A DNA stretch of 64,000 bases from Candidatus Bathyarchaeota archaeon (GCA_963733095.1 CAVTBV010000009.1:203372-267371), one strand, 5' to 3'. Counted from the first letter of the stretch, positions 21,126 to 64,000 are shown. A program made the numbers and translations. Notes: generated by a model from the letters alone, not told the origin.

Positions 21126-21213
21126 GCAGGGGTCTCCAAGCCAGGTCAACGGAGTAGGGCTTAGGACCCTATCGCGTAGGCGTTCGTGGGTTCGAATCCC
21201 ACCCCCTGCACCA
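21126..21213 (+). tRNA. tRNA-Leu(TAG)
   Basis: GCAGGGG / CCCCTGC-A-CCA; anticodon arm TAGGG-CTTAGGA-CCCTA; long variable arm; T arm GTGGG-TTCGAAT-CCCAC. Confidence 0.96.
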
Positions 21214-21280
21214 TATATAAATAAACTGCAGTGGATTTATCCTGGCGATGTATACCTGTTTTTTCTTGGTTTTTCATATT

Positions 21281-21358
21281 TTAAATATTCCTTTTTCTAA
21301 AGAACTTGAGCCCTTCAAAGTCGGTGATGTACTCAAAGCCTTCTTCTTTCCAACAAGC
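21281..21358 (-). pseudogene. Putative integrase C-terminal stub
   Basis: EEGFEYITDFEGLKFFRKRNI*, homologous to 56577-56663. The GFEY...FRKRK tail is as I recall it from archaeal Zn-ribbon tyrosine integrases. Confidence 0.6.
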
Positions 21359-21550
21359 GTAGGACTGTCACTTAACTAAAAGAAGACGACAACATTCCTG
21401 TACACAGCGCTGTCTTCTGTCGACTTAAAGCTGATTCCCAACGCAAGCCATCAGTTACCGGGTAGAAGAAGCGTCCGTGCAGCAATCTTCTTCTTCTCTT
21501 AAAGTAGACTACCGACGAACAAATAACCTTGTGCAGGACCTTAACTGGAC

Positions 21551-22240
21551 TTAATAATATTTCTTCAACGGGTTTTGCGGGTCCGTCGCTAACTTCACAG
21601 ACGACGGAATTATGACGTTGCGCCAATCCGGTTCGAATGTTCTTGCTTCAATACCAGAAACATTAACTCGGTGGATGTGGAGAGCATATTCCATCGCTTG
21701 GTCCTGAGGGTTCTCAAGCTCAAGCATCTGCTTTAGGCTTAAGTGTTCAAAGACTCTTCTAATCGGGCGCATCGAGTTGCCATGGCACGAGATAGCCACA
21801 TTACAAGGATTCTGTCGAAGCCAACTTTCAAGTTGCACAATAAAGGGCAAGGTGCGGCTTTCAACCATTTTGAGGCTTTCGCCGTCTGGAGGCGCAAAAT
21901 CGTAGCCTCGATGAACTTTGGCAAACCACTCAGGTTTTTCGGCTGCTACCTCAACCTTGCTTTTGCCCTGCAACGTACCATAACAACGTTCTATCAGGCG
22001 GTCGTCTACGAAAACAGGAACGTTGAGGTGCGGTTTGAGGACAATCTCAAGGGTTCTTTTGGCTCTCAACAGATGTGATGTAAATGCATAGTCAATTTTT
22101 TCTTGTTCCAACTGTTGAGCAATTTCTTGTGCCTGTAAAAGTCCTTTTGCAGTTAAGTCTGGGTCACGCCAGCCCGAGAATATTCGGTTGCTATTATCAG
22201 TGGTCTCAGCGTGTCTAAAAACGAACAGATTACAAATCAT
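21551..22240 (-). CDS. Histidine phosphatase / 2,3-BPG-dependent phosphoglycerate mutase family
   Basis: FRHAET, FSGWRDPDLT, ERCYGTLQG, PPDGESL and SCHGNSMR motifs. Confidence 0.88.
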   Translation of the reverse strand: MICNLFVFRHAETTDNSNRIFSGWRDPDLTAKGLLQAQEIAQQLEQEKIDYAFTSHLLRAKRTLEIVLKPHLNVPVFVDDRLIERCYGTLQGKSKVEVAAEKPEWFAKVHRGYDFAPPDGESLKMVESRTLPFIVQLESWLRQNPCNVAISCHGNSMRPIRRVFEHLSLKQMLELENPQDQAMEYALHIHRVNVSGIEARTFEPDWRNVIIPSSVKLATDPQNPLKKYY

Positions 22241-22563
22241 AAATTAGCTTCACCAAATGTCGAGTAAACTGGGGCTATCGCAAATTGTCTTAACTCTTTT
22301 ATTTACATATCTCAATTGAGTTACTGGCATGTTCCAAAGCGGTTCTCACATCCTCGGTGAACAGAACATTTCTTCATCTTAACCGTACGCATTTCATAAA
22401 GTCTGTTTGCAACTGTTAATAATCTGTCTTTTTCTTCACGGTAGTTTATCACCAAAACCGTGTTGCTTACAGAAACATAAACAACATTTTGAATCTCAAT
22501 TTCTTCTGAATTAGACCCTCCTTTCTCTTTTTATTTTTCTTTATTTAATTTGCAAAAAAGGCA

Positions 22564-23079
22564 CTATAATTGTTCAATTTCAATTGCAACCTCGTTTCTG
22601 CGCAAAAATCCCGGAATAAATGGCGGATTGTAAAGCATTGTGAACACTTCACCTTTTGTTTTGATTTTCGCCGCTGTTAATTCGTGCAATAGTTCTTGCG
22701 TCTCTTTTTCAAAATGAGCTTCTGACCACCCGCCTGAGAAACAAAGGGCAGCAACAGTTCTCTCAGGAATTTCAGATATTTTCACCTTATCATCCAAAGG
22801 TTCAGGAGTGGTCTCAAGCGTGTATTCTGCAGGCATCACAAAGGCCATAGCACCAGTCTCCGAGATAACGGGTGAAGTCATCGAGATTTTTTGAGAAACC
22901 ACTGGCGCAGTCATTTTCACTTTTGATTGTTGCTTATTTTGGCCCGTTATGAACTTGTAAAGAAGACTAAACGCATCTACTGTTGGATCTTCGACCTTTG
23001 CAATAACGGTCTTTGGGTATCGACGAATCTCAACTTTTCCTATCTCTCGAATTACTTCATATTTTAATGTCTCAACCAT
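22564..23079 (-). CDS. SOUL heme-binding protein
   Basis: EIRRYP, KMTAPV, MAFVMP and YNPPF...RRNEV motifs; start MVETLKY. Confidence 0.88.
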   Translation of the reverse strand: MVETLKYEVIREIGKVEIRRYPKTVIAKVEDPTVDAFSLLYKFITGQNKQQSKVKMTAPVVSQKISMTSPVISETGAMAFVMPAEYTLETTPEPLDDKVKISEIPERTVAALCFSGGWSEAHFEKETQELLHELTAAKIKTKGEVFTMLYNPPFIPGFLRRNEVAIEIEQL

Positions 23080-23098
23080 TTTTTCCACTTCCAAGTTT

Positions 23099-25119: not shown

Positions 25120-25180
25120 CCCAATTACCTCTTGGCCATTAAGGGTTCGAGGCAACGGCTGCTCAAACTACCAGGGGATT
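25120..25180 (+). repeat. att-like site, non-tRNA right arm type
   Basis: AGGGTTCGAGGCAACGGCTGCTCAAACTACCAGGGG matches the reverse complement of 62086-62120. Confidence 0.65.
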
Positions 25181-25287
25181 AAAACACAACCTACTGCAGG
25201 CGAATTCTTTCGATACCACAAATCGTACTTCAACTCAAAAGCCCATCCCCAGCACTATGGTTAAGATTCAGTATATAGAAAGAATTT

Positions 25288-26403: not shown

Positions 26404-26421
26404 ACAAACCCCTCTTAAGAT

Positions 26422-26481
26422 AAAAGAGGGATGTGCGGGTGACATCTCCACGGGTAGAGGGTTCAAATCCCACCTGCACAA
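26422..26481 (+). repeat. tRNA-T-arm att-like site (Leu-type)
   Basis: AAAAGAGGGATGTGCGGGTGACATCTCCACGGGTAGAGGGTTCAAATCCCACCTGCACAA. Confidence 0.88.
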
Positions 26482-26699
26482 CAATCGGACCACATCGCAA
26501 CGCCATTGCTCCGATAAACGGCTTTTTGAGCTGCTAAAGAACTTCTGTTGCCTAGAGCGCTCAAAGAAGAAAAAGATGGTGCAGCAATCAAACTACTCAA
26601 TAACCCATAAGGAAAACAAAACAGACAACTAAGATGCCCACCCCTCTTAGGATTCTCCCGATTAAGCGCTTGTTGCTTTAAACCTGCAGCGGAGTGCAA

Positions 26700-26890
26700 A
26701 GGCATTGGGTTTGCCTAAATGCTTGTACACTCACGTCCACACTGCTCTGCATGGGTTCTATGTTGAGCTGTGTGGGCAAACGCTCTTCCCACACTAAAAC
26801 CGCATAAGGCAAAAAGCCTAAACCAAGAAAGCAGACGTTTGCAAAGCCCACAGTGTAGTGTTGAATCTTTAGAGCCCCACACTCACACAA
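26700..26890 (-). repeat. GTGTG/CACAC-rich non-coding element, copy 1
   Basis: Aligns with 56776-56945; contains the hairpin GTGTGGG-N11-CCCACAC. Confidence 0.8.
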
Positions 26891-26930
26891 AGAAAAAAGA
26901 AATGAACCTCTTTCATGGCTAAAGCGATTA

Positions 26931-26979
26931 GGGTCTGAGCGTTAAATTTAGACGTGGTTTAAATCTAACCCCTGCGCCA
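26931..26979 (+). repeat. Degenerate att-like site (Leu-type 3' end)
   Basis: ...GTGGTTTAAATCTAACCCCTGCGCCA. Confidence 0.55.
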
Positions 26980-27724: not shown

Positions 27725-27786
27725 AAAATAGGGAAGTGCGGGAACATCTCCACCGGCTTGAGGGTTTGAATCCCATCCCTGCACCA
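27725..27786 (+). repeat. tRNA-T-arm att-like site (Leu-type)
   Basis: AAAATAGGGAAGTGCGGGAACATCTCCACCGGCTTGAGGGTTTGAATCCCATCCCTGCACCA. Confidence 0.88.
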
Positions 27787-29966: not shown

Positions 29967-30034
29967 AAAGAAAAGAGGGAGTTTGGCGAGTGATACCTCG
30001 GCGCCTTGAGGGATTCGAATCCCGCTATCCACTA
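29967..30034 (+). repeat. tRNA-T-arm att-like site (Ala-like TCCAC end)
   Basis: AAAAGAGGGAGTTTGGCGAGTGATACCTCGGCGCCTTGAGGGATTCGAATCCCGCTATCCACTA. Confidence 0.8.
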
Positions 30035-31421: not shown

Positions 31422-31452
31422 GTGCGGTTCGAATCCGACTCCTGGACAACCA
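31422..31452 (+). repeat. Degenerate T-arm att-like site
   Basis: GTGCGGTTCGAATCCGACTCCTGGACAACCA. Confidence 0.6.
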
Positions 31453-32028: not shown

Positions 32029-32065
32029 GTGCCGTTATAAGGGTTTGAATCTCCCTTCTGCACCA
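32029..32065 (+). repeat. Terminal att-like site (Leu-type), right boundary of the island
   Basis: AAGGGTTTGAATCTCCCTTCTGCACCA; core genes resume immediately after. Confidence 0.75.
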
Positions 32066-32185: not shown

Positions 32186-32974
32186 ATGTCTGAACATAAA
32201 CCTGTATGGCCTGAATCGGGTGACCTCGTGATCGCTACGATAGAAAGCGTTATGGATTACGGAGCATATGCTAACCTAGATGAGTACAGCCGAAGAGGTT
32301 TCCTTCACATCTCCGAGATCTCCAGCGCCCGTATAAGAAACGTCCGAGACTTTGTTCGTGAAAACCAAAAAATGGTCCTCAAAGTCCTTCGCGTAGATAT
32401 CGAAAAAGGTCACATCGACCTATCACTACGAAGAGTAACTAAACGTGAAAGAATCGAAAAAATCAAATCTTGGAAAAAAGACCGCAAAGGCGACGCCCTC
32501 CTGCATGCAGTAGCAGAAAAAACTGGGTTACCCATACATGAGGTCTACCAGAAAGCCGGTGTACTTCTTGAAGAAAAATACGGCTTATATGACGGCTTCG
32601 AAAAAGTCGTGAAAGAAGGCACAGATGTCTTAACTAAACTCAACATTCCTGAAGACCTTGCCAAAGTTATCGCTCAAGTTGCTGAAGAACGAATAAAAAT
32701 CAAAACCGTGAAAGTGCGAGGCGTTATCGAGGTTCGTTGCATGAAGCCCAACGGTGTTCGATGTATCCAAGAAGCATTTGGCAAAGCTAAGAAAACACAA
32801 GAAGTAAAAGATGCCCAAATAGAATTTGCAGTAATCGCAGCCCCAAAATACAGCGTAGAAGTCTCCGCTGATAATTGGAAACGCGCCGAAGAAGTGCTAG
32901 ATAAAGTAAGCGAAAGCGTAGTTGCCAACATAACTAACGCAGGCGGACACGGCTCTTTTAAGAGAGAAAAATAG
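32186..32974 (+). CDS. eif2a: Translation initiation factor aIF2 alpha subunit
   Basis: S1 domain GFLHISEIS, KGHIDLSLRRV and AAPKY motifs. Confidence 0.95.
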   Translation: MSEHKPVWPESGDLVIATIESVMDYGAYANLDEYSRRGFLHISEISSARIRNVRDFVRENQKMVLKVLRVDIEKGHIDLSLRRVTKRERIEKIKSWKKDRKGDALLHAVAEKTGLPIHEVYQKAGVLLEEKYGLYDGFEKVVKEGTDVLTKLNIPEDLAKVIAQVAEERIKIKTVKVRGVIEVRCMKPNGVRCIQEAFGKAKKTQEVKDAQIEFAVIAAPKYSVEVSADNWKRAEEVLDKVSESVVANITNAGGHGSFKREK

Positions 32975-51260: not shown

Positions 51261-51283
51261 TCAAAACTAACCGAATTCGAGTC

Positions 51284-51336: not shown

Positions 51337-51380
51337 AAAAACGTCTTAAGGAGAAAGCATCAAGGCTCTATCGATGTGAA

Positions 51381-52055: not shown

Positions 52056-52465
52056 GTGTAGCAGAAATTAACCTGATCGTGCAAACCTTTTGGACAACTT
52101 TGATTTTGGTAAGTATGTGGTTTAGAAACAAAGGCAACTATCTCATACATGGTATACTAATGGCGATAGTAGTCGTTGCAACGTTGGTTAGTTTTTCTTT
52201 TGTGCTGCTCATGACTCCTCCCAGCGGTAGTTCCATGCAAGTATATTTCGGTTCGCCTCTAAAAATGGCGGAATTCGTTTCGCATGCCATTCTTTCGATT
52301 CCAGCAATATTCTTTGGAGTTTGGCTTGTAGCACTTTGGCGTCCCAACTCAATAACATTTCCAGCAAAGAGCAAAAGGATAGCCCAAATTACCGCAACCC
52401 TGTGGGTTCTATCATATGTAGCGGGCGTTCTGGGTTTTCTAGCAGACTACGTTCTATTTAGATAA
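52052..52465 (+). CDS. Four-TM membrane protein (DUF420-like)
   Basis: HGILM and HAIL histidines in TM helices. Confidence 0.7.
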   Translation: MSVAEINLIVQTFWTTLILVSMWFRNKGNYLIHGILMAIVVVATLVSFSFVLLMTPPSGSSMQVYFGSPLKMAEFVSHAILSIPAIFFGVWLVALWRPNSITFPAKSKRIAQITATLWVLSYVAGVLGFLADYVLFR

Positions 52466-52477
52466 GCAAAGTCTGGA

Positions 52478-52528
52478 GAGCGATTACATCGAACTCTGTT
52501 GAGCCAATTTAAGTGACTTTGCAAATTC
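52478..52528 (-). repeat. Degenerate att-like site (non-tRNA right arm type)
   Basis: GAGCGATTACATCGAACTCT resembles GAGCAGTCGTTACATCGAACCCT at 62098. Confidence 0.5.
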
Positions 52529-52658
52529 GATAATGTCTATGCAGTTTTCTTTTTTGCATAGAAATTTAGTCAAACGTTAAATAACAAAACTGAGCTGACT
52601 TGGAGGAGATCTGAAATTGTAGCTTGAGTGCTGTGAGGCATTCATATCATGCGGCGAT

Positions 52659-52994
52659 TTAAGGATCTATCAGTTGCAGTTCAGATATTCTTTTCTCTAC
52701 CGTTTCGGCCAACTGTTGACTTAACTGTTCATCAGGCGTTGTCTTGTCTATCTTTTCTATTCTTCGGGCGAGCTCATCATCGCCGATTGCGCCTCTTAGC
52801 CACTTTTGGAAGTCTCCGCGTTCAAAGTGGAACCTGATTGATTGACTATCCATGCGTTCTAGGTCTTTTAAGAAAGTGCAAAGAGAAGTGGCTGTTTCAC
52901 CTGAATAATGTCCGTCTGGCATGAAGAAGTGGAAGCCTTTCTCGTAAGGAACTGGGCTGAGTATTTTCTGTACGGTTTCGGCGCTCATTTTCAA
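52659..52994 (-). CDS. DUF5752-like protein
   Basis: KGFHF...ATSL...SIRFHFERGDFQKW...IGDDELA pattern. Confidence 0.75.
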   Translation of the reverse strand: MKMSAETVQKILSPVPYEKGFHFFMPDGHYSGETATSLCTFLKDLERMDSQSIRFHFERGDFQKWLRGAIGDDELARRIEKIDKTTPDEQLSQQLAETVEKRISELQLIDP

Positions 52995-53053
52995 GATGGC
53001 AACATCCTTGATGTATATTTGGATGAGATGTTAAAACGGTTTTGGCGTTGTTT

Positions 53054-53154
53054 TTCCAAAATTTGGGCTCATGTCGGGAAAGTGGTCTTTCGCAATTAAT
53101 TTATCGTCAGAACATATAAAATAGCAATCTATGCGTCCGATTCTTGGAAGTCTT
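53054..53154 (+). repeat. Degenerate copy D of the AGGCCT-bounded repeat
   Basis: TTCCAAAATTTGGGCTCATG...TTATCGTCAGAACATATAAAA. Confidence 0.55.
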
Positions 53155-53530
53155 AGAGTTTTTTCCGCGCTAAAACAAAGACATGTATGTTCATTAAAGC
53201 GAAACCGAACATCCAAAATTCAATCGCATAGAGCATAGAATGGAAATAGGCAGGGACACATCCTGAGCTAAGAAATATCAGAGCAAGAATGCCTAAGATT
53301 TTTTCGTTGATACGCAAGTTGCTTCAGTATTCTTCTGCTGTTTCTTCGAAAATAAGGCTTATGAATTGAGAATATTGATACTAAATAGACTAGTTGCATT
53401 GATTTGTGTAGAGCTTCTGCTTTAATGCATTAAGAAGCGCAAAGTCTTCAAAGTTTGTCAGTTCTATCGGACTTTGTTACGTGTTAGTTCGATTGCAAAA
53501 CGACGTAGAATTAGTGAAAAAGATGTTGGA

Positions 53531-53592
53531 GTGGACTGGGGGTATTTGAACTCCTCGTAAAGTGGAGATATGACCCGCGATCCCCCTTTTTT
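53531..53592 (-). repeat. tRNA-T-arm att-like site (Ala-type)
   Basis: Plus strand GTGGACTGGGGGTATTTGAACTCCTCGTAAAGTGGAGATATGACCCGCGATCCCCCTTTTTT. Confidence 0.88.
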
Positions 53593-53657
53593 CTTGTTAC
53601 GCCATATTTTTAGGCTAATTTGTTTCATTATCCAGTTTTTGTGCATAACCGGTTTAC

Positions 53658-55088
53658 TTAATCTGTTGGCTTCTTATTGAGCAAATACTTATGGATAGCC
53701 TGCGCGGCCCTCTTTCCTGAACCCATAGCGTTGATGACTGTGGCTTCCCCTGTCATGATATCTCCACCCGTGAAAACACCGGGTAGTTTGGTTTCTCCAG
53801 TTTCTGGGTCGGCGACAATAGTGCCTTGTTTTGTTGTTTGGAGACCTTTGGTGACAGTCTGAATTACTGGATTGGGAGTTCGTCCAATGGCCACGATGAC
53901 TGTATCTGCTTTAGTGATATTTTCTGAGCCTTTGATTGGGACTGGTCTTCGCCTGCCTGAAGCATCTGGTTCTCCGAGTTCCATATTTACCAGTTCAATA
54001 GCGGCTACCCTGCCTTGCTCGTCGCCTATAAATCTGGTTGGAGTGGAAAGGAACTTGAAGTTAATGCCTTCTTCTTCGGCGTTAAGTAACTCTTCTTGCC
54101 TGGCAGGTATCTCTTCTTTTGATCTTCGATAGATTATGTTCACTTCATCTGCACCGCTTCTTATGGCACAGCGCGCTGCGTCCATCGCTACGTTTCCCCC
54201 GCCGATGACTGCCACTTTTTTTCCTACTTTAATGGGTGTATCATAAAGTGGAAATTGGTATGCTTTCATGAGGTTTACTCGTATTAGAAACTCGTTAGCT
54301 GAGTAGATGCCTGCCAAGTTTTCGCCAGGAATATTTAGAAAGAGTGGTAGCCCCGCACCGGATCCAATGAAGACTGCTTCGAATCCTTTTTTGAATAGTT
54401 CTTCAATCGTAAATGTTCTCCCCGCCAGGATGTCCGTGTGAAGTTCAACGCCTAATTTTTTAATGTAATCAACTTCTGCCTGGACAATTCTTTTCGGCAA
54501 CCTGAACTCAGGGATGCCGTAGATTAGAACACCGCCAGCATTGTGAAGTGCCTCGAAAACTACCACTTTGTGACCCAGTTTTGCTAGTTCAGCTGCCACT
54601 GTCAAGCCAGCTGGTCCTGAACCTATGACTGCAACTTTTCCTTCTAATGGTTTTGGTAAGGCAGGCATTTCCACGCCTCTTTCCAATTCGAAGTCAGCGA
54701 CGAACCTTTCAAGCCTACCGATCGAAACAGCTTGGTCTTTTTTTCTCAATATACAGAATTTTTGACATTGCTCTTCTTGGGGACAGACCCTACCACATAT
54801 GGCTGGAAGAGTATTTTTCTCTTTAATCTTTTGGCTGCCTTCGTTAAACTTTTTTTCTTTAATGAGCTTGATAAAGGCTGGAATGTCTACGCCTACAGGA
54901 CAGCCTTTTACGCATTGCGGTTTTGGACAACTAAGGCATCTATTTGCTTCCCGCGATGCTTCTGCTTCTGAATATCCAATTGCGACTTCGTCGAAGCTCT
55001 GTATTCGGGTTTTTGGAGGTTGTTTGCGCATTGGAACAGCGTTTTTGTTGGGTTGAGCTGGTGTTTTGTCTTTCAAGTTTTCTTGCAT
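53658..55088 (-). CDS. NfnB/SudA (NADPH-dependent glutamate synthase beta-like) large subunit
   Basis: RCLSC...CVKGCP, CGRVCPQEEQC, GSGPAGL, YGIPEFRLPK and GGGNVAMD motifs. Confidence 0.93.
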   Translation of the reverse strand: MQENLKDKTPAQPNKNAVPMRKQPPKTRIQSFDEVAIGYSEAEASREANRCLSCPKPQCVKGCPVGVDIPAFIKLIKEKKFNEGSQKIKEKNTLPAICGRVCPQEEQCQKFCILRKKDQAVSIGRLERFVADFELERGVEMPALPKPLEGKVAVIGSGPAGLTVAAELAKLGHKVVVFEALHNAGGVLIYGIPEFRLPKRIVQAEVDYIKKLGVELHTDILAGRTFTIEELFKKGFEAVFIGSGAGLPLFLNIPGENLAGIYSANEFLIRVNLMKAYQFPLYDTPIKVGKKVAVIGGGNVAMDAARCAIRSGADEVNIIYRRSKEEIPARQEELLNAEEEGINFKFLSTPTRFIGDEQGRVAAIELVNMELGEPDASGRRRPVPIKGSENITKADTVIVAIGRTPNPVIQTVTKGLQTTKQGTIVADPETGETKLPGVFTGGDIMTGEATVINAMGSGKRAAQAIHKYLLNKKPTD

Positions 55089-56032
55089 TCACAAGTAGCT
55101 CCTTCACCTTTTTCACGGAAGGCTAAAGCTGAATGCTCCTCCTCGGGATATTCCCTTAATCGACCCATTAGTTCTTTGAAGTCCGTTTTGTGTGCATCAA
55201 ACTCGGGTCCGTCAATGCAGGCAAACTTGGTTTTACCACCAACGGTTACTCTACATGAGCCGCACATGCCCATCCCATCAACCATTATTGGGTTTAAGCT
55301 GACTATTGTTTTAATGCCGTAAGGTCGTGTGACCTCTGCTGTTGCCCTCATCATAGGCACTGGACCTATAGCGTATACTATGCCAAACGAGTAGTTCCTC
55401 TCAATAAGTGATCTTAGAACATCAGTAACAAACCCTTTCTGTCCTTTTGACCCATCATCTGTTGAGATGTAGAATTTATCAGAAACTGCTTTCATTTCAT
55501 CCTCAAGAATTAGAAGTTCTTTGTTCCTTGCTCCGAGAATAGAAACAACTTTGTTTCCTGCAGCTTTAAGGGCCTTTGCAATAGGGTGAGCCGCAGCAGT
55601 GCCTACTCCTCCGCAAACGACCGCGACCACACCATAATTCTGTATGCAGCTGGGATTCCCTAATGGACCAGCAACGTTCAAGATTTCATCTCCGACGTTT
55701 AGAGCAGCTAGCTTTTTGGTTGATACCCCCAGGTGTTGGAAAATCAAAGTAATCGTTCCAGAACTGCCTTGTGCACTTTTCCATTGGAAGAGTGTAAGAG
55801 GGATTCTTTCTCCTTCTTCATCTATCCTAAGTATTACAAACTGGCCTGCTTGGGCTTTCTCAGCTATTTCTGGCGCAACTAACGTAATTTCTGTAACTTG
55901 GGGATTAAGGGTGCGTTTGCGTATTATGGGATGTCCTTTCCTGTCCAGTGGAAATGAATTCCTTGATTCAATATTTTGAATCGTAGGCGTGTCTTCAACC
56001 TTCTATTCTTTTATCTTTTTGTTTTTGAGCAT
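55073..56032 (-). CDS. NfnA/SudB FAD/2Fe-2S subunit; start ambiguous (in-frame TAG at 56003-56005)
   Basis: AQAGQFVILRIDEEGERIPLT lies in frame upstream of the called ORF; GPLG, TDDGS, MVDGMGMCGSCRV and CIDGPEFD motifs. Confidence 0.85.
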
Positions 56033-56093
56033 TTATGTTTCGCTCTAAGAAAGGATGTGGGGAAATAATTTTTTGTGTAATCTTTAATTTGAA

Positions 56094-56321
56094 TCAGGTG
56101 TGGACTGCTACTTCGGTTCGAATTACAGCATTGATTTGGCTAACAGCCTCGCGGATGCGCCTTAAATCATCAAGGTCTTTTGCTTCTGCATAGAGTATTA
56201 CGTCATATGATCCCATTACTGAATGGGTAATTTTGACGCCTTCAATTTTTTGGGTTTCTTGTACAGTGAGAAAAGCCTGTCCTTTCTTGGTTCGAATAAG
56301 CATATAAAAAGGAACGACCAC
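56094..56321 (-). CDS. Lrp/AsnC ligand-binding domain protein
   Basis: HSVMGSYDVILYAEA pattern. Confidence 0.85.
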   Translation of the reverse strand: MVVPFYMLIRTKKGQAFLTVQETQKIEGVKITHSVMGSYDVILYAEAKDLDDLRRIREAVSQINAVIRTEVAVHT

Positions 56322-56576
56322 TGATTTTCTCCTCAGAAATAATTATAAATAAACTAAAATGTAAAGTTTGTTGTTTGCACCCCGCAAGTAGCTGAGGAAA
56401 AAGCGAGAAATCTCAGTGTTGTGGAACTAATAGAATTCCCATTTTCTCTATTCTTATCTACATAAACCACCTAAGACTTTCTGAATTTAGAAGTATATTA
56501 TAATCATAGTAAAAAGCACCATTTCTACTGCGACTTCACCAGCAAAACCCCTTCTTTTTCTAATTAAAAAAACTCT

Positions 56577-56663
56577 GAACAAGAGGCTTGCCACCTTATA
56601 GAATCCGGTTTTGAGTTTGTTTGTGATTTTGGTGATAACCGGCTCTTTAGAAAGCGGAAATAA
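56577..56663 (+). pseudogene. Putative integrase C-terminal stub
   Basis: EQEACHLIESGFEFVCDFGDNRLFRKRK*, ending about 45 bp before an att-like site. Confidence 0.65.
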
Positions 56664-56707
56664 AGGTGTTTTCATAAGGACCGGGGTGTATCAAAAAGTA
56701 TGTTTAA

Positions 56708-56770
56708 GTGGACTGGGAGGATTTGAATCCCTCGTAAAGTGGAGATGTCACTAGCAGAATTCCTTTATTT
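56708..56770 (-). repeat. tRNA-T-arm att-like site (Ala-type)
   Basis: GTGGACTGGGAGGATTTGAATCCCTCGTAAAGTGGAGATGTCACTAGCAGAATTCCTTT; closely similar to 53531. Confidence 0.88.
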
Positions 56771-56775
56771 TCTCT

Positions 56776-56945
56776 TTGTGTGGGTGTGGGACCTAAAAAC
56801 TGCACACTACACTGGAAGCTTTGGGAATGGTTCCTTTTTCAGTTTGGGTCGTTTTCCTATTGTTGTTTGAGTGTGGGAAGAGGGTTTAGCCCACACATTC
56901 AACATGGATGCTATGTTGGAGTGTGTGGGTGTGAGTGTGGTTGTA
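56776..56945 (+). repeat. GTGTG/CACAC-rich non-coding element, copy 2
   Basis: TTGTGTGGGTGTGGGACCTAAA...ACACTACACTG...AGTGTGGGAAGAG...CCCACACA.TCAACAT...GTGTGG..GTGAGTGT. Confidence 0.8.
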
Positions 56946-57206
56946 TGTTGGCGACTCTATTCCTGTATCCTGTGCCTGTTTTTCTTTCTGACCTAAACTA
57001 CGGTTTTGTAAGTTCATTTAGCGATCAAACAATCGGGGGATCAAACTGTGACTAATCGCAGAAAGATGAACTGTCCACTTGGAGGCGAAGCATAAAGCGA
57101 TAGTCGAAAGTAATGCAAATGTCGAGCAGATTGCCTCTAAACTTCAGAAGACGCCTTTGAGTTGTGATAGTGAAATGTCAACGCTTAGGCTTGTAGTAAT
57201 AGCGAT

Positions 57207-57272
57207 GGGTCGGCGGGGCTGGGATTCGACCCCTCTACCAATGGAGATATCACCCGCATTCTCACTTTTTTT
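57207..57272 (-). repeat. tRNA-T-arm att-like site (CCCCGCCG end)
   Basis: CGGCGGGGCTGGGATTCGACCCCTCTACCAATGGAGATATCACCCGCATTCTCACTTTTTT. Confidence 0.85.
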
Positions 57273-57457
57273 CAAGGTTTTTTTCCGCTGTCTTTTCCGC
57301 TAATCGTTTACGGAAATTACTTAGCTGGCAAGAGGCTTCTTTTTTTCGCAAAAAGCTTGCATTATTTTTTAGAATGTTGACTATTCTGCATTTGTTTGTT
57401 TTATTTGTCACATGTTTTTGTTGGTTTATAGCAAGTTTTAAGTTAACTTCGTTATAG

Positions 57458-60169
57458 ATGTGGTCGGCAGAAAGAAAATGGAGAAAAAAACAAATGAAAA
57501 TTTCTGGAAAAAAAAATGCGACAATAGTGATCGTAATATTATTGGCTTTTTCAATCACAGCGTCAATGACATTGATATCAAGTGTTAACGCACATTACCC
57601 CCCGATGAATATTCCAACGTTCTCTTTCATTAGCGTTTCACCAGATCCAATAGGCATAGGACAAACAGCTCGCGTTAACTTCTGGCTCGGTCAACCTCCA
57701 CCAACAGCAAATGGACAATACGGTGATAGATGGACAAATATGACTGTGAAAGTTACGCATCCTGGTGGAACAACTGAGACTTTAGGACCTTTTACTTCCG
57801 ATGATACAGGAGGAGCCCACACAAGTTATACGCCTATTGTACTGGGAAATTATACTTTCCAGTTCATCTTTGGTGGACAAACATTGGCAGGCAACAATCT
57901 TGCTCCTGGAGCTCCCTCGTCTGGACCTGGCTCTAACATAAATATCGGCGATTATTTCCAACCCAGCTCAAGCAACGTATTTACACTAACAGTACAACAG
58001 GAAGCAATCCAATATCCAACGGAAGCTCCACTTCCAACAGGCTACTGGACACGCCCAATTTATGCTGAAAACAACAACTGGTACTCAATTGCCGGGAACT
58101 GGCTTGGTTTTGGTCAGACATCATTTGCTAACACTGGAATGTACAGTGTTGACGTAAACTATAATCCGTATACAACCGCGCCCAACACTGCTCATATTTT
58201 ATGGACGAAACCTGAAGCTTTCGGTGGTACAATCGGTGGAGAATTCGGCGGCAGCGAGCAAGGCAACTTCTTTTCAACTTCGCAGTACGAGCCAAAGTTT
58301 GCGCCAATAATCATGAATGGTATTCTCTACTATACCCAGTACCCAGGAAGTGCTGCTAATCCAGCAGGATGGGTAGCCGCAGACTTACACACAGGACAAA
58401 CATTATGGACAAAGAACACAACTGAACTTTTAAGATGCGGTCAAATACTCCAAATGACTACACCCAATCAATACGGAGCCCTCGCATACCTCTGGAGCCA
58501 GCCGTTGGGTCCTAGGGTTGTAAACGAAAACTTCGGCGCAAGCGTCGGCGGATCTTTAGAGATGTGGGATGCAATGACTGGAAACTACATATTAAAGATA
58601 ACTGGCGTTCCTATTGCAGTAAATGGCCCTGGTACTGGCATAGTACTTTCAAAAGATGATCGTGGCGATTTAATAGGTTATTATGTGGATTCGAGCAACC
58701 CGTTCGCACCAAAGCTGAACATGTGGAACTCGACACGATGCATTAACCTAGCCGTTCCGAACTCTTACGGTGGACCAAATGTTGCAGATAATTGGTATTG
58801 GAGACCTCCTCAAAACGCAGAAATAAACTTCACCTTAGGAATACAATGGTCGGCTCCAATCGCTACAAGTGTTTCAGGCTCGCCAATCGTAGATTTCGCT
58901 AATGGCCTCTACGGTCTCGGAATTACTTATGTCAGCAGCGGAGTAGTGTATATGTCAGAATACACTATGGGCGGAGGACTATTCTACCAACCCGGATGGA
59001 CTATTGAAGCAGGCTACAGCGCAACAGACGGCTCACAACTGTGGATAACTAACCGAACTCAAATACCCTACACTCTCATATCTGCGGGTGCCGGTACCTA
59101 TTTCGCCGGCGACGGATATTACGTACAATTCACCCAGAATGCATTGTCCATCTCATGCTTCAGCCTAACAACAGGAAACAAAGTATGGGGACCAACTACA
59201 CTTCCAAACGCTAGTCCTTTTGATTCTCTTGGAGGCAACTCAGTCATCGCCAACGGCACAATTTACCTATGGGCTTACGGAGGAGACGTTTACGCATACA
59301 ACCTTGCCGATGGAACTCTCAAATGGCATTACAGCACACCAAGCGGCGGCTTAGAGTCTCCCTATGGTGTCGAGCCATTATGGACTTTCACGGTAGGTAC
59401 CGTTGCTGACGGCAAACTCTTCGTTCCTGAAGGCCATATGTACAGTCCACCACTTTTCCACCAAGCACAGCAGCTCGCCCTCAATATTACTGACGGCAGT
59501 GTGGTTTGGAGTATTGATGCTTTCGACGTTACTAGCGGTCCAGCTATTGTAGATGGCATTATGACAACGTTAAACGCTTACGACAACCAAATATATGCCT
59601 GGGGTAAAGGACCAACCGTTACCACTGTTTCAGCGCCAAACATTGGGGTTACAACTGCCACACCAATTACGATAAGCGGAACTGTTATCGACATCTCTGC
59701 AGGTACAAAACAACAAGCGCAAGCAGCAAACTTCCCCAAGGGTGTTCCTGCGGTTTCTGACGCAAGCCAAAGTGGCTGGATGGAATATGTTTATATGCAG
59801 CAACCTTGCCCAGCAAACGTAACCGGCGTTCCAGTTTCTCTCGAAGTTCTTGATTCAAACGGCAACTATAGACAAATCGGCTCTACATCAAGTGATGGCA
59901 GCGGCGCATTCCGCTTCACGTGGACACCTGATATAATAGGCGATTACACGATCGTTGCGAACTTTGCAGGTTCTGAATCGTACTATCCTTCCTCTGCAGA
60001 AGCATTCTTTACTGCCAGCGAACCAGCGTCGACATCAGCACCAACCGTTGCACCTGTAACAGACATAGCAACAATGTCAGGCCTAACTATTGGAATCGCT
60101 GCAGCAACAATTGCCATAATCATCGCTATAGCAATAGTCGGGATTCTTCTACTCAAAAAAAAGCCATAA
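57458..60169 (+). CDS. PQQ-binding-like beta-propeller surface protein
   Basis: Paralog of 2698-5259; likely start ATG at 57493. Confidence 0.85.
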   Translation: MWSAERKWRKKQMKISGKKNATIVIVILLAFSITASMTLISSVNAHYPPMNIPTFSFISVSPDPIGIGQTARVNFWLGQPPPTANGQYGDRWTNMTVKVTHPGGTTETLGPFTSDDTGGAHTSYTPIVLGNYTFQFIFGGQTLAGNNLAPGAPSSGPGSNINIGDYFQPSSSNVFTLTVQQEAIQYPTEAPLPTGYWTRPIYAENNNWYSIAGNWLGFGQTSFANTGMYSVDVNYNPYTTAPNTAHILWTKPEAFGGTIGGEFGGSEQGNFFSTSQYEPKFAPIIMNGILYYTQYPGSAANPAGWVAADLHTGQTLWTKNTTELLRCGQILQMTTPNQYGALAYLWSQPLGPRVVNENFGASVGGSLEMWDAMTGNYILKITGVPIAVNGPGTGIVLSKDDRGDLIGYYVDSSNPFAPKLNMWNSTRCINLAVPNSYGGPNVADNWYWRPPQNAEINFTLGIQWSAPIATSVSGSPIVDFANGLYGLGITYVSSGVVYMSEYTMGGGLFYQPGWTIEAGYSATDGSQLWITNRTQIPYTLISAGAGTYFAGDGYYVQFTQNALSISCFSLTTGNKVWGPTTLPNASPFDSLGGNSVIANGTIYLWAYGGDVYAYNLADGTLKWHYSTPSGGLESPYGVEPLWTFTVGTVADGKLFVPEGHMYSPPLFHQAQQLALNITDGSVVWSIDAFDVTSGPAIVDGIMTTLNAYDNQIYAWGKGPTVTTVSAPNIGVTTATPITISGTVIDISAGTKQQAQAANFPKGVPAVSDASQSGWMEYVYMQQPCPANVTGVPVSLEVLDSNGNYRQIGSTSSDGSGAFRFTWTPDIIGDYTIVANFAGSESYYPSSAEAFFTASEPASTSAPTVAPVTDIATMSGLTIGIAAATIAIIIAIAIVGILLLKKKP

Positions 60170-60391
60170 AACCAAAAAAATATTTTCCCCTTTTTTAGTT
60201 TTTAAAAATAACAATGCTTGAGAAAAGAAGGGGCTGAGCCTGCTGTGACAACTATTCATGAAATAGCTGTAGATTAAAAGAAGATTTTTGCATTTTCCCT
60301 CTTTCTCCTATTTCGGTTCAGGAGCCTCAGCAAACCCAACTTCATTCTTGCAAAATAGTTGGCTTGTTTTCATTTACCTCCCAGTCCTAAA

Positions 60392-60454
60392 TTGGACCAG
60401 GCTTGATTTGAACCCTTGTCATATCCGTGACTTCACTCGCATATTCCTTTTTTT
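60392..60454 (-). repeat. tRNA-T-arm att-like site (GGTCCA end)
   Basis: TTGGACCAGGCTTGATTTGAACCCTTGTCATATCCGTGACTTCACTCGCATATTCCTTTTTTT. Confidence 0.75.
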
Positions 60455-60545
60455 AATCAAGTGTAATTGGTTCGAAACACATAATCTAAAAAAGCAGAAA
60501 GCAATAAACTTATAATCCAAGTCAAACCAATAAAAGCCGAAGTAA

Positions 60546-60767
60546 GTGGATGAAATGGACAGAAAATTAAAAACTATACCCGAACCGAAAAAGGGAACGC
60601 GCACCGTTTTTGTTTCTAAAACGTTGCCAGTAATAAAAAGCAAGGGCGGTAATACTACTTATCTATGTGGTAATTGTGGAGCAAAGCTAGGCGAGACTAT
60701 AATCGAAGGAAAATTCAAGAATGTTGTGTTAAAGTGTCCAACTTGTAACCTCTACAACGACATATAG
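60546..60767 (+). CDS. Small zinc-ribbon protein
   Basis: YLCGNCG...KCPTC..YN pattern. Confidence 0.7.
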   Translation: MDEMDRKLKTIPEPKKGTRTVFVSKTLPVIKSKGGNTTYLCGNCGAKLGETIIEGKFKNVVLKCPTCNLYNDI

Positions 60768-61066
60768 TTTAGGTGACGATTTTCACAAAGAGAAGAATTC
60801 TGCTCAAGTGACAGAGACTTAACTGACCCGCCGAAAAGACTTTGTAACCGCTGCGCCTTCATGGTTCCAACTTCTCTGCTGGAACAGGGAACATAGGCAA
60901 TTCTACTTTTCCATCTTTGTTCCCACTAGTTAATTCCAATTGTTTAACTGCTCACCCATTTCCTCTCTTAAATGCTGAGTTTTAATTTTATCCATCGTTA
61001 TCTAACACGATAGGGAAAAAACCAGCTATTCAGGGCCAATAAAGAGCTAGCTATTTTACTTAAATC

Positions 61067-61128
61067 GGTGCAGGGGCGGGATTCGAACCCTCTGTAAATG
61101 GAGAAATCACCCGCACAACCCCTTTTTC
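61067..61128 (-). repeat. tRNA-T-arm att-like site (Leu-type)
   Basis: GGTGCAGGGGCGGGATTCGAACCCTCTGTAAATGGAGAAATCACCCGCACAACCCCTTTTTC. Confidence 0.9.
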
Positions 61129-61164
61129 TTTAAACTAGACGAAAAATAGCAGGGAAATGAAAAC

Positions 61165-61296
61165 ATGTTGGAAGAAAAAACAGTAAAATGCCCCGTATGC
61201 GGCAGTCAGAAGTCATACAAGGACGGCATAAGGTACACTCATTCAAAGGAAATTCAGTGTTACCAATGCCGTGAATGCAGCCACAGGTTCTCATAA
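61165..61296 (+). CDS. 43 aa Zn-ribbon ORF (InsA-like / putative integrase N-terminal stub)
   Basis: MLEEKTVKCPVCGSQKSYKDGIRYTHSKEIQCYQCRECSHRFS*. Confidence 0.65.
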   Translation: MLEEKTVKCPVCGSQKSYKDGIRYTHSKEIQCYQCRECSHRFS

Positions 61297-61360
61297 CGGT
61301 GGGGAGCGATTTGGACTATGATTGGGTGAAGATGTCGCCTCTAACCCATTTTTTCATTAT

Positions 61361-61963
61361 TTAATGAAGAGGCTTTCGGCGTCTTCTATAAAGCATTAAA
61401 CCCACACTTATTCCGAAAACTACTGAGATGATAGAAACAACAGCTATGACGGAAAAAGACGAAGAAGGCTGTGGTTTTTCTATTAGCTTTTCGGTTGAAA
61501 ATGTAACTGTTGCATTACTATGGGAATTATCATGGGTATTAGCATAAACGGTCAATGTATGATTACCGAAAGGAATCTGTTGAAACGTTGCGCTAATTGA
61601 GGCGTTTAATGAGTTTACATACTGCGTCTGATGACCAAAAAGCTGGTGAATACCGTCTTGCCAATCCGCCTGGTAATAAACACTATCAATTGTCCAAAAA
61701 TACGAAGCCACATCTACTGCCAATGTAAAGTTGCTTGCTTGAATTACGGTTTGGTTTTCTGGCGTTATGATTTCAACAATTGGTGAAACATGTGCTTCAC
61801 GGATTGCAGGCGGTTGAATAACAGGTGAACTTGTATCCCATTGAGTAAACGAAACAATGGGTTCTATTTGGCTTTTGACTGTTGAAAACGAAGCCGTGCT
61901 TGAAAGGCAAAGAATACAAAGAATTGTTACGGATAGAAGCTTAGCTTTCTTCATGTTTATCAT
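61361..61963 (-). CDS. Exported Ig-like protein with C-terminal TM anchor
   Basis: Signal peptide, PIVEIITPENQT...GNHTLTVYAN, TM followed by RRRRK. Confidence 0.8.
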   Translation of the reverse strand: MINMKKAKLLSVTILCILCLSSTASFSTVKSQIEPIVSFTQWDTSSPVIQPPAIREAHVSPIVEIITPENQTVIQASNFTLAVDVASYFWTIDSVYYQADWQDGIHQLFGHQTQYVNSLNASISATFQQIPFGNHTLTVYANTHDNSHSNATVTFSTEKLIEKPQPSSSFSVIAVVSIISVVFGISVGLMLYRRRRKPLH

Positions 61964-62085
61964 AGAACTTTAAGGTAGAGTTGCTAATTACTCTCCCCAA
62001 AGAACAGCATGTTCCTCTAAAAGAACAGCAAAAGTTTCTTGTCTATCCTGGAATGATGCATTCTGCAGGATATAGAAGCTACACC

Positions 62086-62164
62086 CCCTGGCGTTTTGAG
62101 CAGTCGTTACATCGAACCCTCCACTCGATGGAGATGTCACCCGCGTTCCCCTCTTTTCTTTTTT
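62086..62164 (-). repeat. att-like site, conserved left arm with non-tRNA right arm
   Basis: CCCTGGCGTTTTGAGCAGTCGTTACATCGAACCCTCCACTCGATGGAGATGTCACCCGCGTTCCCCTCTTTT. Confidence 0.85.
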
Positions 62165-62245
62165 GTTGAAAATGACCGAGGTGAGGTAGCTTGTTTGGAG
62201 CAGATGTCGCCAACATAAACTCTTTGCCATTCTAGATGCTGATAC

Positions 62246-63730
62246 TCATAGTGAACCAGCGAGTTTCGTTCCTGTGTGCAATACTTCACTCACCAGAATC
62301 TCAAAGTCTTCACGTCGACTTCGATGATTTGTGTTAGCCACTCTAAGAACATACTTCCCATTTATGACGGTTCCAGTTAAAACGGCGATGCCGCGTTCCT
62401 GTAAATCAATAGCAATTTCCTTGTTAACTTCATCGAGTAACATATCAGTCAAATCAGATGAGACAAAACGGAAGCAAACTACGTTTAGCGAAATCGGCGC
62501 CGAAAGTTCCAGTCCCGGAGAAGCTTTGATAAGTTCGCCCAAATAGAAAGCCTGATCGATGTTCTGTTGAATTATCCTTGCATATTTCTTTGTGCCGTGC
62601 TCCTTAATAGAAATCCATGCCTTAAGCGCACGAAATCCCCGAGAAAGCTCATAACTGTAATCGCTAAACCATGGCAAATCGCCGCCGGCAACACCGTGTT
62701 CTTCTTTTCCGTGAGCAAGGTATTTAGGAGTTAAACAGAAAGCCTTTCGATGCTGCTTTTCTTCCCTCACTAAAATGCATCCAATTTCGTAAGGCATATA
62801 CATCCACTTATGCAAGTCTAATGCCAACGAGTCAGCCAACTCCATTCCCGCAACAGTTTTTTCCGCTTTGGGCGACAGGCGAGCCCAGGCGCCAAATGCG
62901 CCGTCAACATGGAACCAAAGTTTTTCTCTTCGGCATATATTAGCCAGAGCCTTAAGATCGTCCACGCTTCCAGTGTTCGTTGTGCCGGCAGCTCCAATAA
63001 TGCAGAATGGAGAAAAACCGCTTTCGCGGTCTCTTGTGATAGCTGCTTCAAGTTTTGCGATATCAATTTGGAACTGATTATTAACTGGCAAAAATCGCAG
63101 TGCCTCACTTCCCAGTCCAAGCAGCTCCACAGCTTTCTGAATTGAACTGTGGGCTTCTTCGCTAGCGTAGAGCACCATATTCTTAGGTGCCATTTGAAGT
63201 CCCTTCCTGCGGAGGTCAAAACCTGCTTTCGTGTTGCGGGCAACTGTTAGTCCGATTAGGTTAGAGGCTGAGCAACCGCTGGTTAATACTCCGCTCGCTG
63301 AGGCTGGAAACTGGAGCATTTCCTTAATCCAGTCGAGAACTTGCTTTTCAACGTGTACAGCAATGTGGTCTCCCCCTCCATTGTTTGTGTTCATTGTAGC
63401 CGCCAAAAGTTCAGAATAAGCCCCCATGATGGTTCCAGTTCCAAGTATCCAACCCCAGAAGCGCGGGTGGATGTTTCCCATCGGGTACGGAAGCACTTTT
63501 TCAGTAAATTCCTTGTAGACCTCTTCGGGTCGTTCAGGATTTACAGGCACAGGTGCTGTGAACTGAGCTTTTACTTGTTCAGGAATATTTTGCCAGACAG
63601 GACGCTCTCGAACTGATTTCAAGTAATCTACCACGTCATCAAGCATCTTGTGACCAAGCTTTCGCATTGATTCCCAATTATCAGGGTCCAGCGTTTCTTC
63701 AGACACTGCATTATTGATTTCTGTTTTCAC
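62246..63730 (-). CDS. PLP-dependent group II (aromatic-L-amino-acid-like) decarboxylase
   Basis: HPRFWG, AHSSIQKA, AGTTNTG, HVDGAFG, DLHKW and SRGFRALK motifs. Confidence 0.92.
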   Translation of the reverse strand: MKTEINNAVSEETLDPDNWESMRKLGHKMLDDVVDYLKSVRERPVWQNIPEQVKAQFTAPVPVNPERPEEVYKEFTEKVLPYPMGNIHPRFWGWILGTGTIMGAYSELLAATMNTNNGGGDHIAVHVEKQVLDWIKEMLQFPASASGVLTSGCSASNLIGLTVARNTKAGFDLRRKGLQMAPKNMVLYASEEAHSSIQKAVELLGLGSEALRFLPVNNQFQIDIAKLEAAITRDRESGFSPFCIIGAAGTTNTGSVDDLKALANICRREKLWFHVDGAFGAWARLSPKAEKTVAGMELADSLALDLHKWMYMPYEIGCILVREEKQHRKAFCLTPKYLAHGKEEHGVAGGDLPWFSDYSYELSRGFRALKAWISIKEHGTKKYARIIQQNIDQAFYLGELIKASPGLELSAPISLNVVCFRFVSSDLTDMLLDEVNKEIAIDLQERGIAVLTGTVINGKYVLRVANTNHRSRREDFEILVSEVLHTGTKLAGSL

Positions 63731-63866
63731 TCTGAATGCCTCTCATGAATCCTATCGAATACTTGATTTATTTATTGCTATAAAATTGCGAATTGATGCT
63801 GATAAACTGAAGTGACTGTTCTAAGACAGAAATTTCTGACAAACCTTATATTATTTTGATGTTGAA

Positions 63867-63930
63867 GTGGACTGGGGGGATTTGAACCCAGGACAGCAAT
63901 GAGGATTCACTCGCAAAATTCCTCTTTTTT
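63867..63930 (-). repeat. tRNA-T-arm att-like site (Ala-type)
   Basis: GTGGACTGGGGGGATTTGAACCCAGGACAGCAATGAGGATTCACTCGCAAAATTCCTCTTTTTT. Confidence 0.88.
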
Positions 63931-63957
63931 GTGTGTACTTGGCATAGGTGAACAAAC

Positions 63958-64000
63958 ATGGAACGCAAAATCATAAATTGCCCGCATTGCGGCAAAACTA
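63958..64000 (+). CDS. Start of a Zn-ribbon protein (possibly an integrase), runs off the window
   Basis: AGGTGA RBS, MERKIINCPHCGKT; same position relative to the att-like site as the ORF at 61165. Confidence 0.55.
   Translation, partial: MERKIINCPHCGKT

Follow-up and report, generated by a model that had tools for sequence, protein, structure and literature searches.

A conserved arm fused to transfer RNA 3′ ends marks arrays of small gene modules across an order of Bathyarchaeia

We analysed a window of 64,000 nucleotides (nt) from the genome of a Candidatus Bathyarchaeota archaeon (GCA_963733095.1; hereafter G000), corresponding to positions 203372-267371 of contig CAVTBV010000009.1 (C9), in which an earlier sequence-only reading had noticed a transfer RNA (tRNA)-related site that recurs in two islands and divides them into small gene modules. 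This site, ~65 nt long, joins a constant arm of ~30 nt to the T arm and 3′ end of a tRNA. It is a real feature, present order-wide; tRNA-targeted elements that build islands are already known as a kind, and the trait that distinguishes the present family from them is its unusually conserved arm. We consider it probable that these sites represent element-side attachment junctions, belonging to a family of small integrative elements that occur throughout the order and that integrated serially at tRNA T arms and subsequently decayed. Below, C followed by a number designates contigs of G000, G001 to G016 are related genomes, and L followed by a number refers to extracted loci.

Read from 5′ to 3′, the site comprises a run of A followed by GGGG, 3 nt, TGCGGGTGAYATCTCCA, ~7 variable nt, a T stem-loop (GGGTTCRAATCCC) and a tRNA 3′ acceptor strand. 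The arm is unchanged whichever acceptor strand follows (at least six tRNA types), while the acceptor strand and trailer vary according to tRNA type. Compared with the tRNA genes of G000, with 0-2 mismatches per 13 nt, the right halves correspond to Leu, Ala(TGC), Val(GAC), Cys, Pro(GGG) and Arg(CCG)-like genes, and those of Ala and Cys type also carry the 3′ trailers (~10 nt) of these genes. Further 3′-end types occur at the sites of relatives, including a Pro(GGG)-type end identical to that of the G000 gene. These matches to genuine tRNA genes agree with the initial proposal of attachment-type junctions linked to the T arms of tRNAs. The right halves form displaced direct repeats of tRNA 3′ ends, of Leu type throughout island 1 and of Ala type, with its own trailer, in island 2.

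The T-arm motif had eight matches in the window against 0.11 expected (at least eight in 0 of 100 shuffles), two of them true tRNAs and one the opposite strand of a site, and the arm motif had six against 0.59 expected (at least six in 0 of 100 shuffles). A site model, namely a sequence-only profile trained on 31 copies and run unfiltered across the window, produced 20 matches at E ≤ 1, ten of them with E ≤ 2.9e-10 (three on the + strand and seven on the − strand). Since the window sites were part of the training set, these E values are partly a product of construction, and the independent support comes from the shuffles and from the matches in other genomes. The ten strong copies were all among the 15 sites originally listed, whereas the remaining five proved to be degenerate tRNA 3′ or variant remnants (25120, E 0.48; 31422, E 0.49; 26931; and 32029 and 52478, recognisable by eye only). 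The core block had been described as free of copies and the + copies as lying downstream of tRNA-Leu; indeed, the model gave no match with E < 0.01 in 1-20800 or 32100-52400, and all + copies are found downstream of tRNA-Leu(TAG) in the same orientation. The 3′ edge of the window coincides with the end of contig C9, so that the head tRNA of the − array is not visible in it.

Iterated nhmmer searches recovered 40 sites in G000: 16 on C9, six on C7, four each on C12 and C13, three on C3, two on C6 and five singletons. Neighbouring sites (pairs at most 10 kb apart) were co-oriented in 22 of 23 cases in G000, in all 25 in the loci of relatives and in 39 of 40 in metagenome loci, with a median spacing of 0.9-1.6 kb (1.6 kb in G000). 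The model had matches at E ≤ 0.001 in 39 of 41 related genomes, including all 24 others of the genus and 14 of the 16 genera of the order; the top matches cover the full model, and some of the weak ones may be plain tRNA T arms. A metagenome pattern scan found at least 120 stretches, of which 80 loci are listed (all our metagenome figures refer to the matches listed); these loci hold 119 arm-bearing sites, in arrays of up to six sites within ~4 kb. The sequence-only reading had suggested scanning this genome and its relatives with the expectation that hits would cluster downstream of tRNAs, which held for the Leu arrays, including one on C13 behind tRNA-Leu(CAG), and failed for several headless arrays considered below.

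The alignment of 68 sites contained no Watson-Crick covariation, and the 25 pairs with the highest mutual information were all neighbouring acceptor columns. A constant arm lacking covariation points to a DNA site and not to a folded RNA, and we conclude that the site family is a DNA site. A tRNA-derived non-coding RNA gene, that is, an acceptor-stem and T-arm minihelix that had multiplied through the genome and functioned at the RNA level, perhaps as a processing signal, appears to us extremely improbable. In some copies, pairing is possible between TGCGGG and CCTGCA or CCCGCA of the 3′ strand, but the arm stays constant while the acceptor strand switches between tRNA types, and the 5′ and 3′ acceptor strands are not kept complementary, contrary to what a tRNA minihelix would require. 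The right half of a variant site (TGCAACGGCTGCYCAAAWTGCCAGGGGGTGTAGCTTCTATATCC) does end in a hairpin with compensatory and G-U changes when paired by hand on the alignment; this terminal hairpin is absent from the consensus fold computed by the tool, whose energy is weak (−7.8). In addition, the only Rfam matches in the window are the two true tRNAs, there is no conserved promoter upstream of the sites, and their orientation with respect to neighbouring genes is not fixed. We also discarded an RNA structure for the main site (no paired columns in the 68 sites) and three other roles for the arm: opposite-strand coding sequence (only short open reading frames (ORFs) in inconsistent frames), a ribosome-binding site with the start of a sense gene (peptides of 26-50 amino acids (aa), broken by indels between copies) and a promoter for the gene downstream (such genes occur on both strands).

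The ~40 dispersed copies, short, related to tRNA and flanked by an A-rich stretch on the 5′ side, might also recall a miniature inverted-repeat transposable element or short interspersed element derived from a tRNA and spread by transposition or retroposition, independently of any integrase. We find this very improbable: the alignments show neither terminal inverted repeats nor target duplications, the right halves come from different tRNA genes, trailers included, and the copies cluster in co-orientation beside tRNAs and integrase stubs instead of being scattered through genes.

The integrases of G000 are more informative about the origin of the sites. The PF00589 profile had 20 matches in this genome, which we grouped into three families on the basis of PF00589 membership and paralogue comparison; family I consists of tyrosine integrases with a zinc-ribbon N terminus. 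At four family-I loci of G000 the integrase gene is convergent with a tRNA 3′ end, with 57-63 nt between the tRNA end and the integrase stop codon. Among 30 family-I loci in the genus, the integrase is convergent with the 3′ end of the adjacent tRNA in 20, co-oriented with tRNA-His in three and convergent with a site in one, and six loci contain no tRNA. PF00589 had no match in the window; no complete integrase gene lies between the sites there, where we saw nothing but short stubs and, at the contig end, the cut start of an ORF, in line with the non-autonomous modules first proposed. A relaxed search of the window with tblastn and a family-I hidden Markov model (HMM) revealed three C-terminal stubs and one N-terminal stub of family I at module borders. 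The C-terminal stubs, located 40-75 nt behind tRNA-Leu, the remnant at 26954 and the site at 56706, are all convergent, and the four stubs sit exactly where decayed autonomous elements would be expected to leave them. Similar arrangements exist in relatives: in G003, tRNA-Cys is followed by a 73-aa integrase stub, one cargo gene and then a Cys-type site, and in G015 a stretch of 1.1 kb contains tRNA-Ala, a fragment of an integrase and a site. An IMG/VR pattern scan gave ten matches, three of them true sites, one of which (L022) has a short-form family-I integrase directly behind it; the other two records have no integrase.

A cut family-I integrase, represented by its 3′ half, lies at a contig end (C16:178421-178981), convergent with a tRNA-Ala(TGC) gene whose 3′ end and trailer match the site at 63866. 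The ORF starting at 63958 in the window probably supplies the missing 5′ part of the integrase that adjoins this tRNA-Ala, in which case the ends of C9 and C16 would join into an integrase-only unit heading island 2. From these loci we infer that family I is the enzyme acting on the sites, with the arm as the presumptive binding sequence of its integrases. Family II was dismissed as the main enzyme, with close homologues in three of 41 genus genomes versus sites in all 24 other genus genomes searched. As a separate observation, C14:10400-10492 (+) holds a tRNA-Leu gene with an apparent insertion or intron near the D/anticodon region, called by neither ARAGORN nor Rfam; a complete family-I integrase is convergent 57 nt behind it.

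In the mechanism that we favour, each element would carry an attachment site (attP) made of the constant ~30-nt arm, a T stem-loop, the 3′ end of its target tRNA and ~10 nt of trailer. The zinc-ribbon tyrosine integrase of family I would recombine it with the tRNA gene, the exact crossover point presumably lying in or beside the T loop. The tRNA would be rebuilt from the copy brought by the element, and the old tRNA 3′ end would be left fused to the arm, creating the junction that the sequence-only reading reported. Repeated insertions at one tRNA, and apparently also into resident sites, would build up a co-oriented stack of modules, and the later deletion of integrase genes would leave cargo-only modules between sites. 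Insertion into resident sites may likewise explain why different 3′ ends coexist in an array.

The turnover of the islands can be followed next to the pair formed by tRNA-Thr and tRNA-Leu(TAG), where island 1 starts, co-oriented, at the tRNA 3′ end in seven of seven genomes, as the C13 array does at its own tRNA. From this pair to the aIF2-alpha gene, the interval measures 7.4-29 kb in seven species and its content is hypervariable: two modules aside, that of G000 has nothing in common with those of the other six, in agreement with the first interpretation. A one-gene module encoding a 373-aa TIR-like protein is common to G000 and G010 (76% nucleotide identity); it is placed directly behind tRNA-Leu in G010 and fifth in G000, and a tRNA-Leu 3′ remnant closes it in both, a shift that fits later insertions at the tRNA. 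The most decayed arms belong to the distal-most sites, from which we conclude that arms decay in place and that well-kept arms mark recent events.

As first proposed, the window sites bound small sets of unrelated accessory genes. These encode a histidine phosphatase, a SOUL-domain protein, an ABC-2 transporter pair, a PEMT/ICMT-like methyltransferase, a PNPOx-like protein, a NosD-like surface protein, a membrane protein with a borderline CAP12/Pycsar TIR match, an Mrr-like nuclease with an ATP cone, an NfnAB-like pair, a PQQ-repeat surface protein, a Big-domain protein and a PLP decarboxylase. Gene orientation within modules is mixed, with genes on both strands, and we saw neither replication nor packaging modules in the window. 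The nuclease, at 50418-51260 (+) on the inner edge of island 2, is a fusion of an ATP cone, an Mrr-like restriction endonuclease and an AF1548-like C-terminal domain.

Several observations weigh against serial integration followed by decay. A convergent C-terminal stub accompanies only one of the 40 arm-bearing sites of G000 and one of the 119 from metagenomes, and at the thresholds used a divergent N-terminal stub accompanies none of either set (0/40 and 0/119); with arms well kept despite so few stubs, many modules would have to be young. Complete family-I integrases stand beside tRNAs on C5, C14 and C2 without a nearby arm-bearing site, and only a few loci tie family I to the arm. No co-oriented tRNA gene precedes the arrays on C7, C12 and C9:109-121 kb. 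In island 2, one array mixes Ala, Leu-like, variant and unassigned 3′ ends, which pure accretion at a single tRNA does not predict. Some sites are spaced by as little as 79-100 nt, forming ‘empty’ doublets whose modules are too small to have held an integrase; back-to-back sites 79-102 nt apart occur in four metagenome loci (L179, L192, L172 and L181) and in a locus of G016 (L030). Finally, the serial-integration model does not account for two features described below, namely the alternative right half of the variant site and the insertion of family-II elements into arms. Mixed ends, headless arrays, tiny doublets and rare stubs together suggest that resident sites recombine with each other and, possibly, that modules devoid of integrase are moved in trans; such trans-mobilisation is possible and is unneeded for most of the data. 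An arm variant (GCGGGAGACATCRCCAC...) devoid of T arm also exists and pairs with full sites ~88 nt downstream; in some of the doublets of the metagenome and G016 loci, one partner is this variant.

The same features could be read as a cassette system, in which most modules never had an integrase and would be non-autonomous circles with one arm and T-arm site, inserted, excised and shuffled in trans by a resident or visiting integrase through recombination of site with site or site with tRNA. We view this reading as possible yet doubtful. It would accommodate the different tRNA-type 3′ ends within one array, the arrays without a head tRNA, the density and co-orientation of the arrays down to the doublets, the rarity of stubs beside well-kept arms and the integrase-only unit that seems to head the tRNA-Ala array, as well as a ~250-nt repeat that makes up the whole content of one module per island. 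The stubs at four module borders of the window and the genes pointing both ways within modules, unlike promoterless cassettes, argue against it. The PLP decarboxylase gene bears on both sides: examined in 24 Bathyarchaeia loci, it is preceded by a co-oriented site in three (L091, L094 and L096), as it is in G000, behind differing head tRNAs (Ala in G000, Cys in L091, Phe in L094 and none visible in L096), but in 15 of the 24 there is no site within 4 kb, and the homology ends at the gene itself, so that only the bare gene is common to relatives, an observation that does not decide the matter. The NosD-like gene, 90% identical in G012 with no flanking sites there, is unfavourable to a cassette system.

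A more direct trace of moving cassettes was sought at junctions. Neither circular contigs nor terminal overlaps were present among the 80 metagenome loci, and no strain-level breakpoint was seen. Of the public runs, seven were listed as containing the sequence, none of them an RNA run; the contigs of four runs covering 49000-64000, which were short and of depth 2-4, gave joints with sides of only 21-29 nt or derived from repeats, none of them reliable. The original idea that a trans-acting integrase makes these arrays an integron analogue is not supported as formulated, in view of the stubs at four borders, the mixed gene orientation, the succession of tRNA-Cys, stub, cargo and site in G003, the NosD-like gene without sites in G012 and the bare decarboxylase gene. 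In its broadest form it would imply an order-wide cassette system with the ~65-nt site as sole requirement in cis, served by zinc-ribbon integrases, some of them in integrase-only units at array heads, a scenario that we can only propose tentatively. That integrase-less one-gene modules are exchanged between tRNA-linked arrays and resident sites, making the system a functional analogue of integrons, is in our opinion rather unlikely, and we would be similarly cautious about a role of resident sites as harmless landing pads sparing tRNA genes.

The integron attC site is an imperfectly palindromic sequence that works as a folded single strand, promoterless cassettes are co-directed from a promoter by intI/attI, and the IntI-type integrase has a characteristic extra domain; elements that exploit Xer, like integron cassettes, would be analogues of modules moved in trans. 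Our arrays resemble integrons in that co-oriented short sites separate modules of one or a few genes and that an integrase apparently heads one array. They differ in that the site is no folded palindrome, its right half being a tRNA fragment, that module genes lie on both strands, and that the integrase belongs to a tRNA-targeting family whose stubs lie inside the arrays.

The closest likeness is to the tycheposons of Prochlorococcus, for which the available text reports that serial integration leaves partial tRNAs and fragmented integrases in islands (10.1101/2020.12.28.424599). As far as this text goes (Hackl et al.), both are tyrosine-recombinase elements targeting few tRNA genes, where newcomers push earlier ones into the island, and both show scattered partial tRNAs and integrase fragments and small adaptive cargo. 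The elements described here are found in another domain of life, have an integrase that its zinc-ribbon N terminus sets apart by description, possess the constant ~30-nt arm beside nearly every partial tRNA of any type, form much denser arrays (~1-1.6 kb median spacing, 40 sites per genome) and show no replication or packaging modules in the window. In archaeal elements, according to the accessible part of Krupovic et al. 2019 (PMC6563490), arrays arise by re-use of one att site; integration into the 3′ part of tRNA genes, with a regenerated tRNA and a displaced fragment marking the ends, is a feature in common. Small cryptic elements with the integrase as sole conserved gene are also known among them; the Islander concept (PMC4383910) belongs to the same context. 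In those portions of the literature, archaeal elements are defined singly by direct repeats, and an order-wide arm shared across many tRNA specificities, as seen here, is not reported. The SSV-type ‘suicidal’ integrases, as presented in the available part of PMC7253208, are likewise archaeal tRNA-targeting tyrosine integrases whose decay traps the element; there, integration splits the integrase gene, whose ORF contains the att site, whereas here the full-length genes are intact at 57-63 nt from the tRNA. Two short-form genes, at C13:87130 and in L022, overlap or directly follow a site core and might be SSV-like exceptions. The accessible text of three further papers (PMC10848311, PMC11697101 and PMC8371274) mentions only virus-encoded integrases, a provirus and topoisomerase-like proteins, and our literature search on Bathyarchaeia yielded no description of this site family, in keeping with the novelty first supposed for it.

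How the abundant, uncultivated Bathyarchaeia exchange genes is poorly known. The ~65-nt site offers a searchable signature of their flexible gene pool, and its tie to a specific integrase family provides a candidate enzyme. In metagenome-assembled genomes, this signature would allow annotating island borders, assembly breaks and accessory genes, among them transporters, surface proteins and TIR-like and AbiV-like defence genes. If modules do move in trans, these archaea would possess a counterpart of integrons using tRNA T arms, and the compact arm and T-arm substrate with its integrase would become a testable tool for archaeal genetics.

The variant site mentioned above keeps the arm and GGGTTCGA, followed by a conserved 50-nt sequence in place of the usual right half. 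Five copies were found in G000, with further ones in G001, G002 and G012; we compared such copies in alignments of five and nine. Its right half also occurs directly after the stop codon of a BNR-repeat surface-protein gene (C7:78040). On C13, an ORF of ~60 aa rich in Cys (C13:28790-29088; 16800-17090 of L006, − strand) occupies the 312-nt gap that separates tRNA-Leu(CAG) from the first variant site. Family II is represented by two 4-kb integrase elements that are 78-85% alike (C9:114625-118666 and C13:14155-17705, in L004 and L006), with integrases of 424-458 aa; the C9 element carries an AbiV-type HEPN gene. Both have the first half of an arm at their left end and the second half with a T arm at their right end, and look as if they had been inserted into the arm of a site at CGGGTG.

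Table 1. Sites, remnants, integrase stubs and landmark genes in the window, with further copies of the variant right half in other contigs and loci.
Feature	Position	Strand	Evidence and remarks
tRNA-Thr(GGT)	20882-20958	−	ARAGORN, Rfam
tRNA-Leu(TAG), head of island 1	21126-21213	+	ARAGORN, Rfam; the tRNA pair heads a variable island in 7/7 genomes
Family-I integrase C-terminal stub, ~20 aa	21287-21346	−	74 nt behind tRNA-Leu, convergent; weak match: tblastn E 0.001; HMM positions 334-353, E 0.0048 genome-wide
Degenerate variant-type remnant, GGGTTCGA and alternative right half, no arm	25128-25200	+	Model E 0.48; 36 nt at 92% to C7 variant copy
Site: arm, T arm and Leu-like 3′ end with small deletion	26420-26482	+	E 1.2e-16
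tRNA-Leu 3′ remnant without arm (first listed at 26931)	26954-26979	+	Sequence; integrase stub next
Family-I C-terminal stub, 57 aa	27025-27195	−	~45 nt behind remnant at 26954, convergent; tblastn E 2e-11; HMM positions 300-338, E 1.3e-5; PNPOx-like gene stops 3 nt upstream (ORF list)
Site: arm (minus one base), T arm and Leu-type 3′ end with CCA	27725-27785	+	E 1.2e-10
Site: diverged arm, T arm and decayed 3′ end	29971-30030	+	E 2.9e-10
Membrane protein, 373 aa	30238-31359	+	CAP12/Pycsar effector TIR, borderline (24.4 bits vs cut-off 24.7)
tRNA-Leu 3′ remnant closing the TIR-like module	31422-31450	+	E 0.49; homologous remnant in G010
Last tRNA-Leu-like 3′ remnant before aIF2-alpha	32041-32065	+	Sequence read by eye; no model match
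aIF2-alpha, core gene bounding island 1	32186-32974		
Site: Ala(TGC)-type 3′ end and trailer	53530-53594	−	E 3.8e-14; 2/13 mismatches to tRNA-Ala(TGC)
Half-arm	56532-56559	−	E 0.0023
Family-I C-terminal stub, 30 aa	56571-56660	+	~44 nt behind core of site 56706-56771, convergent; tblastn E 3.7e-10; HMM positions 325-353, E 3.3e-8
Site with Ala(TGC)-type 3′ end	56706-56771	−	E 1.8e-13
Site, 3′ end neither Ala nor Leu (CCCAGCCCCGCCG)	57211-57272	−	E 8.2e-15
Site: diverged arm, 3′ end of no assigned tRNA	60390-60455	−	E 2.1e-11
Site with Leu-like 3′ end within otherwise Ala-type array	61068-61130	−	E 1.3e-17
Family-I zinc-ribbon N-terminal stub	61177-61293	+	~50 nt from arm of site 61068-61130, divergent; tblastn E 2.6e-6 to 2.5e-5 with four family-I queries in a window-sized search; not significant in genome-wide HMM search
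Variant site: arm, GGGTTCGA and conserved 50-nt alternative right half with terminal hairpin	62060-62160	−	Arm half matched at 62111-62160, E 1.5e-11
Site: Ala(TGC) 3′ end and 10-nt trailer of the C16 tRNA-Ala gene	63866-63930	−	E 8e-13; 33 nt at 97% to tRNA-Ala(TGC) and trailer
ORF start (MERKIINCPHCGKT...), probable 5′ end of a family-I integrase	63958-64000	+	CPHCG zinc-ribbon motif; 28 nt from arm of last site; runs off contig
Other copies of the variant right half	C13:28680-28776; C13:19590-19687; C7:85170-85272; C3:3500-3600; L003:2041-2118		

Two kinds of repeated sequence are associated with the modules. The PQQ-repeat surface protein of island 2 (57458-60169, +), of 903 aa and with Ig domains, has paralogous stretches in more than 20 places on at least nine contigs, one of them within the array at C9:110-113 kb. 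The other is a repeat of ~180-250 nt, with ~10 copies, that contains internal inverted repeats and ends in CACACCCACACAAAGAAAA. It occurs in the window at 26651-26902 and 56748-56975, and elsewhere in G000 at C11:18335-18587, C13:11493-11680, C7:150135-150390, C7:141336-141514, C12:505307-505554, C14:32836-33018, C8:32689-32863 and C9:45659-45905. Each island has one module that consists of nothing but this repeat, another copy is placed 158 nt behind tRNA-Gln(TTG), and in three or four copies its end directly abuts the arm of a site.

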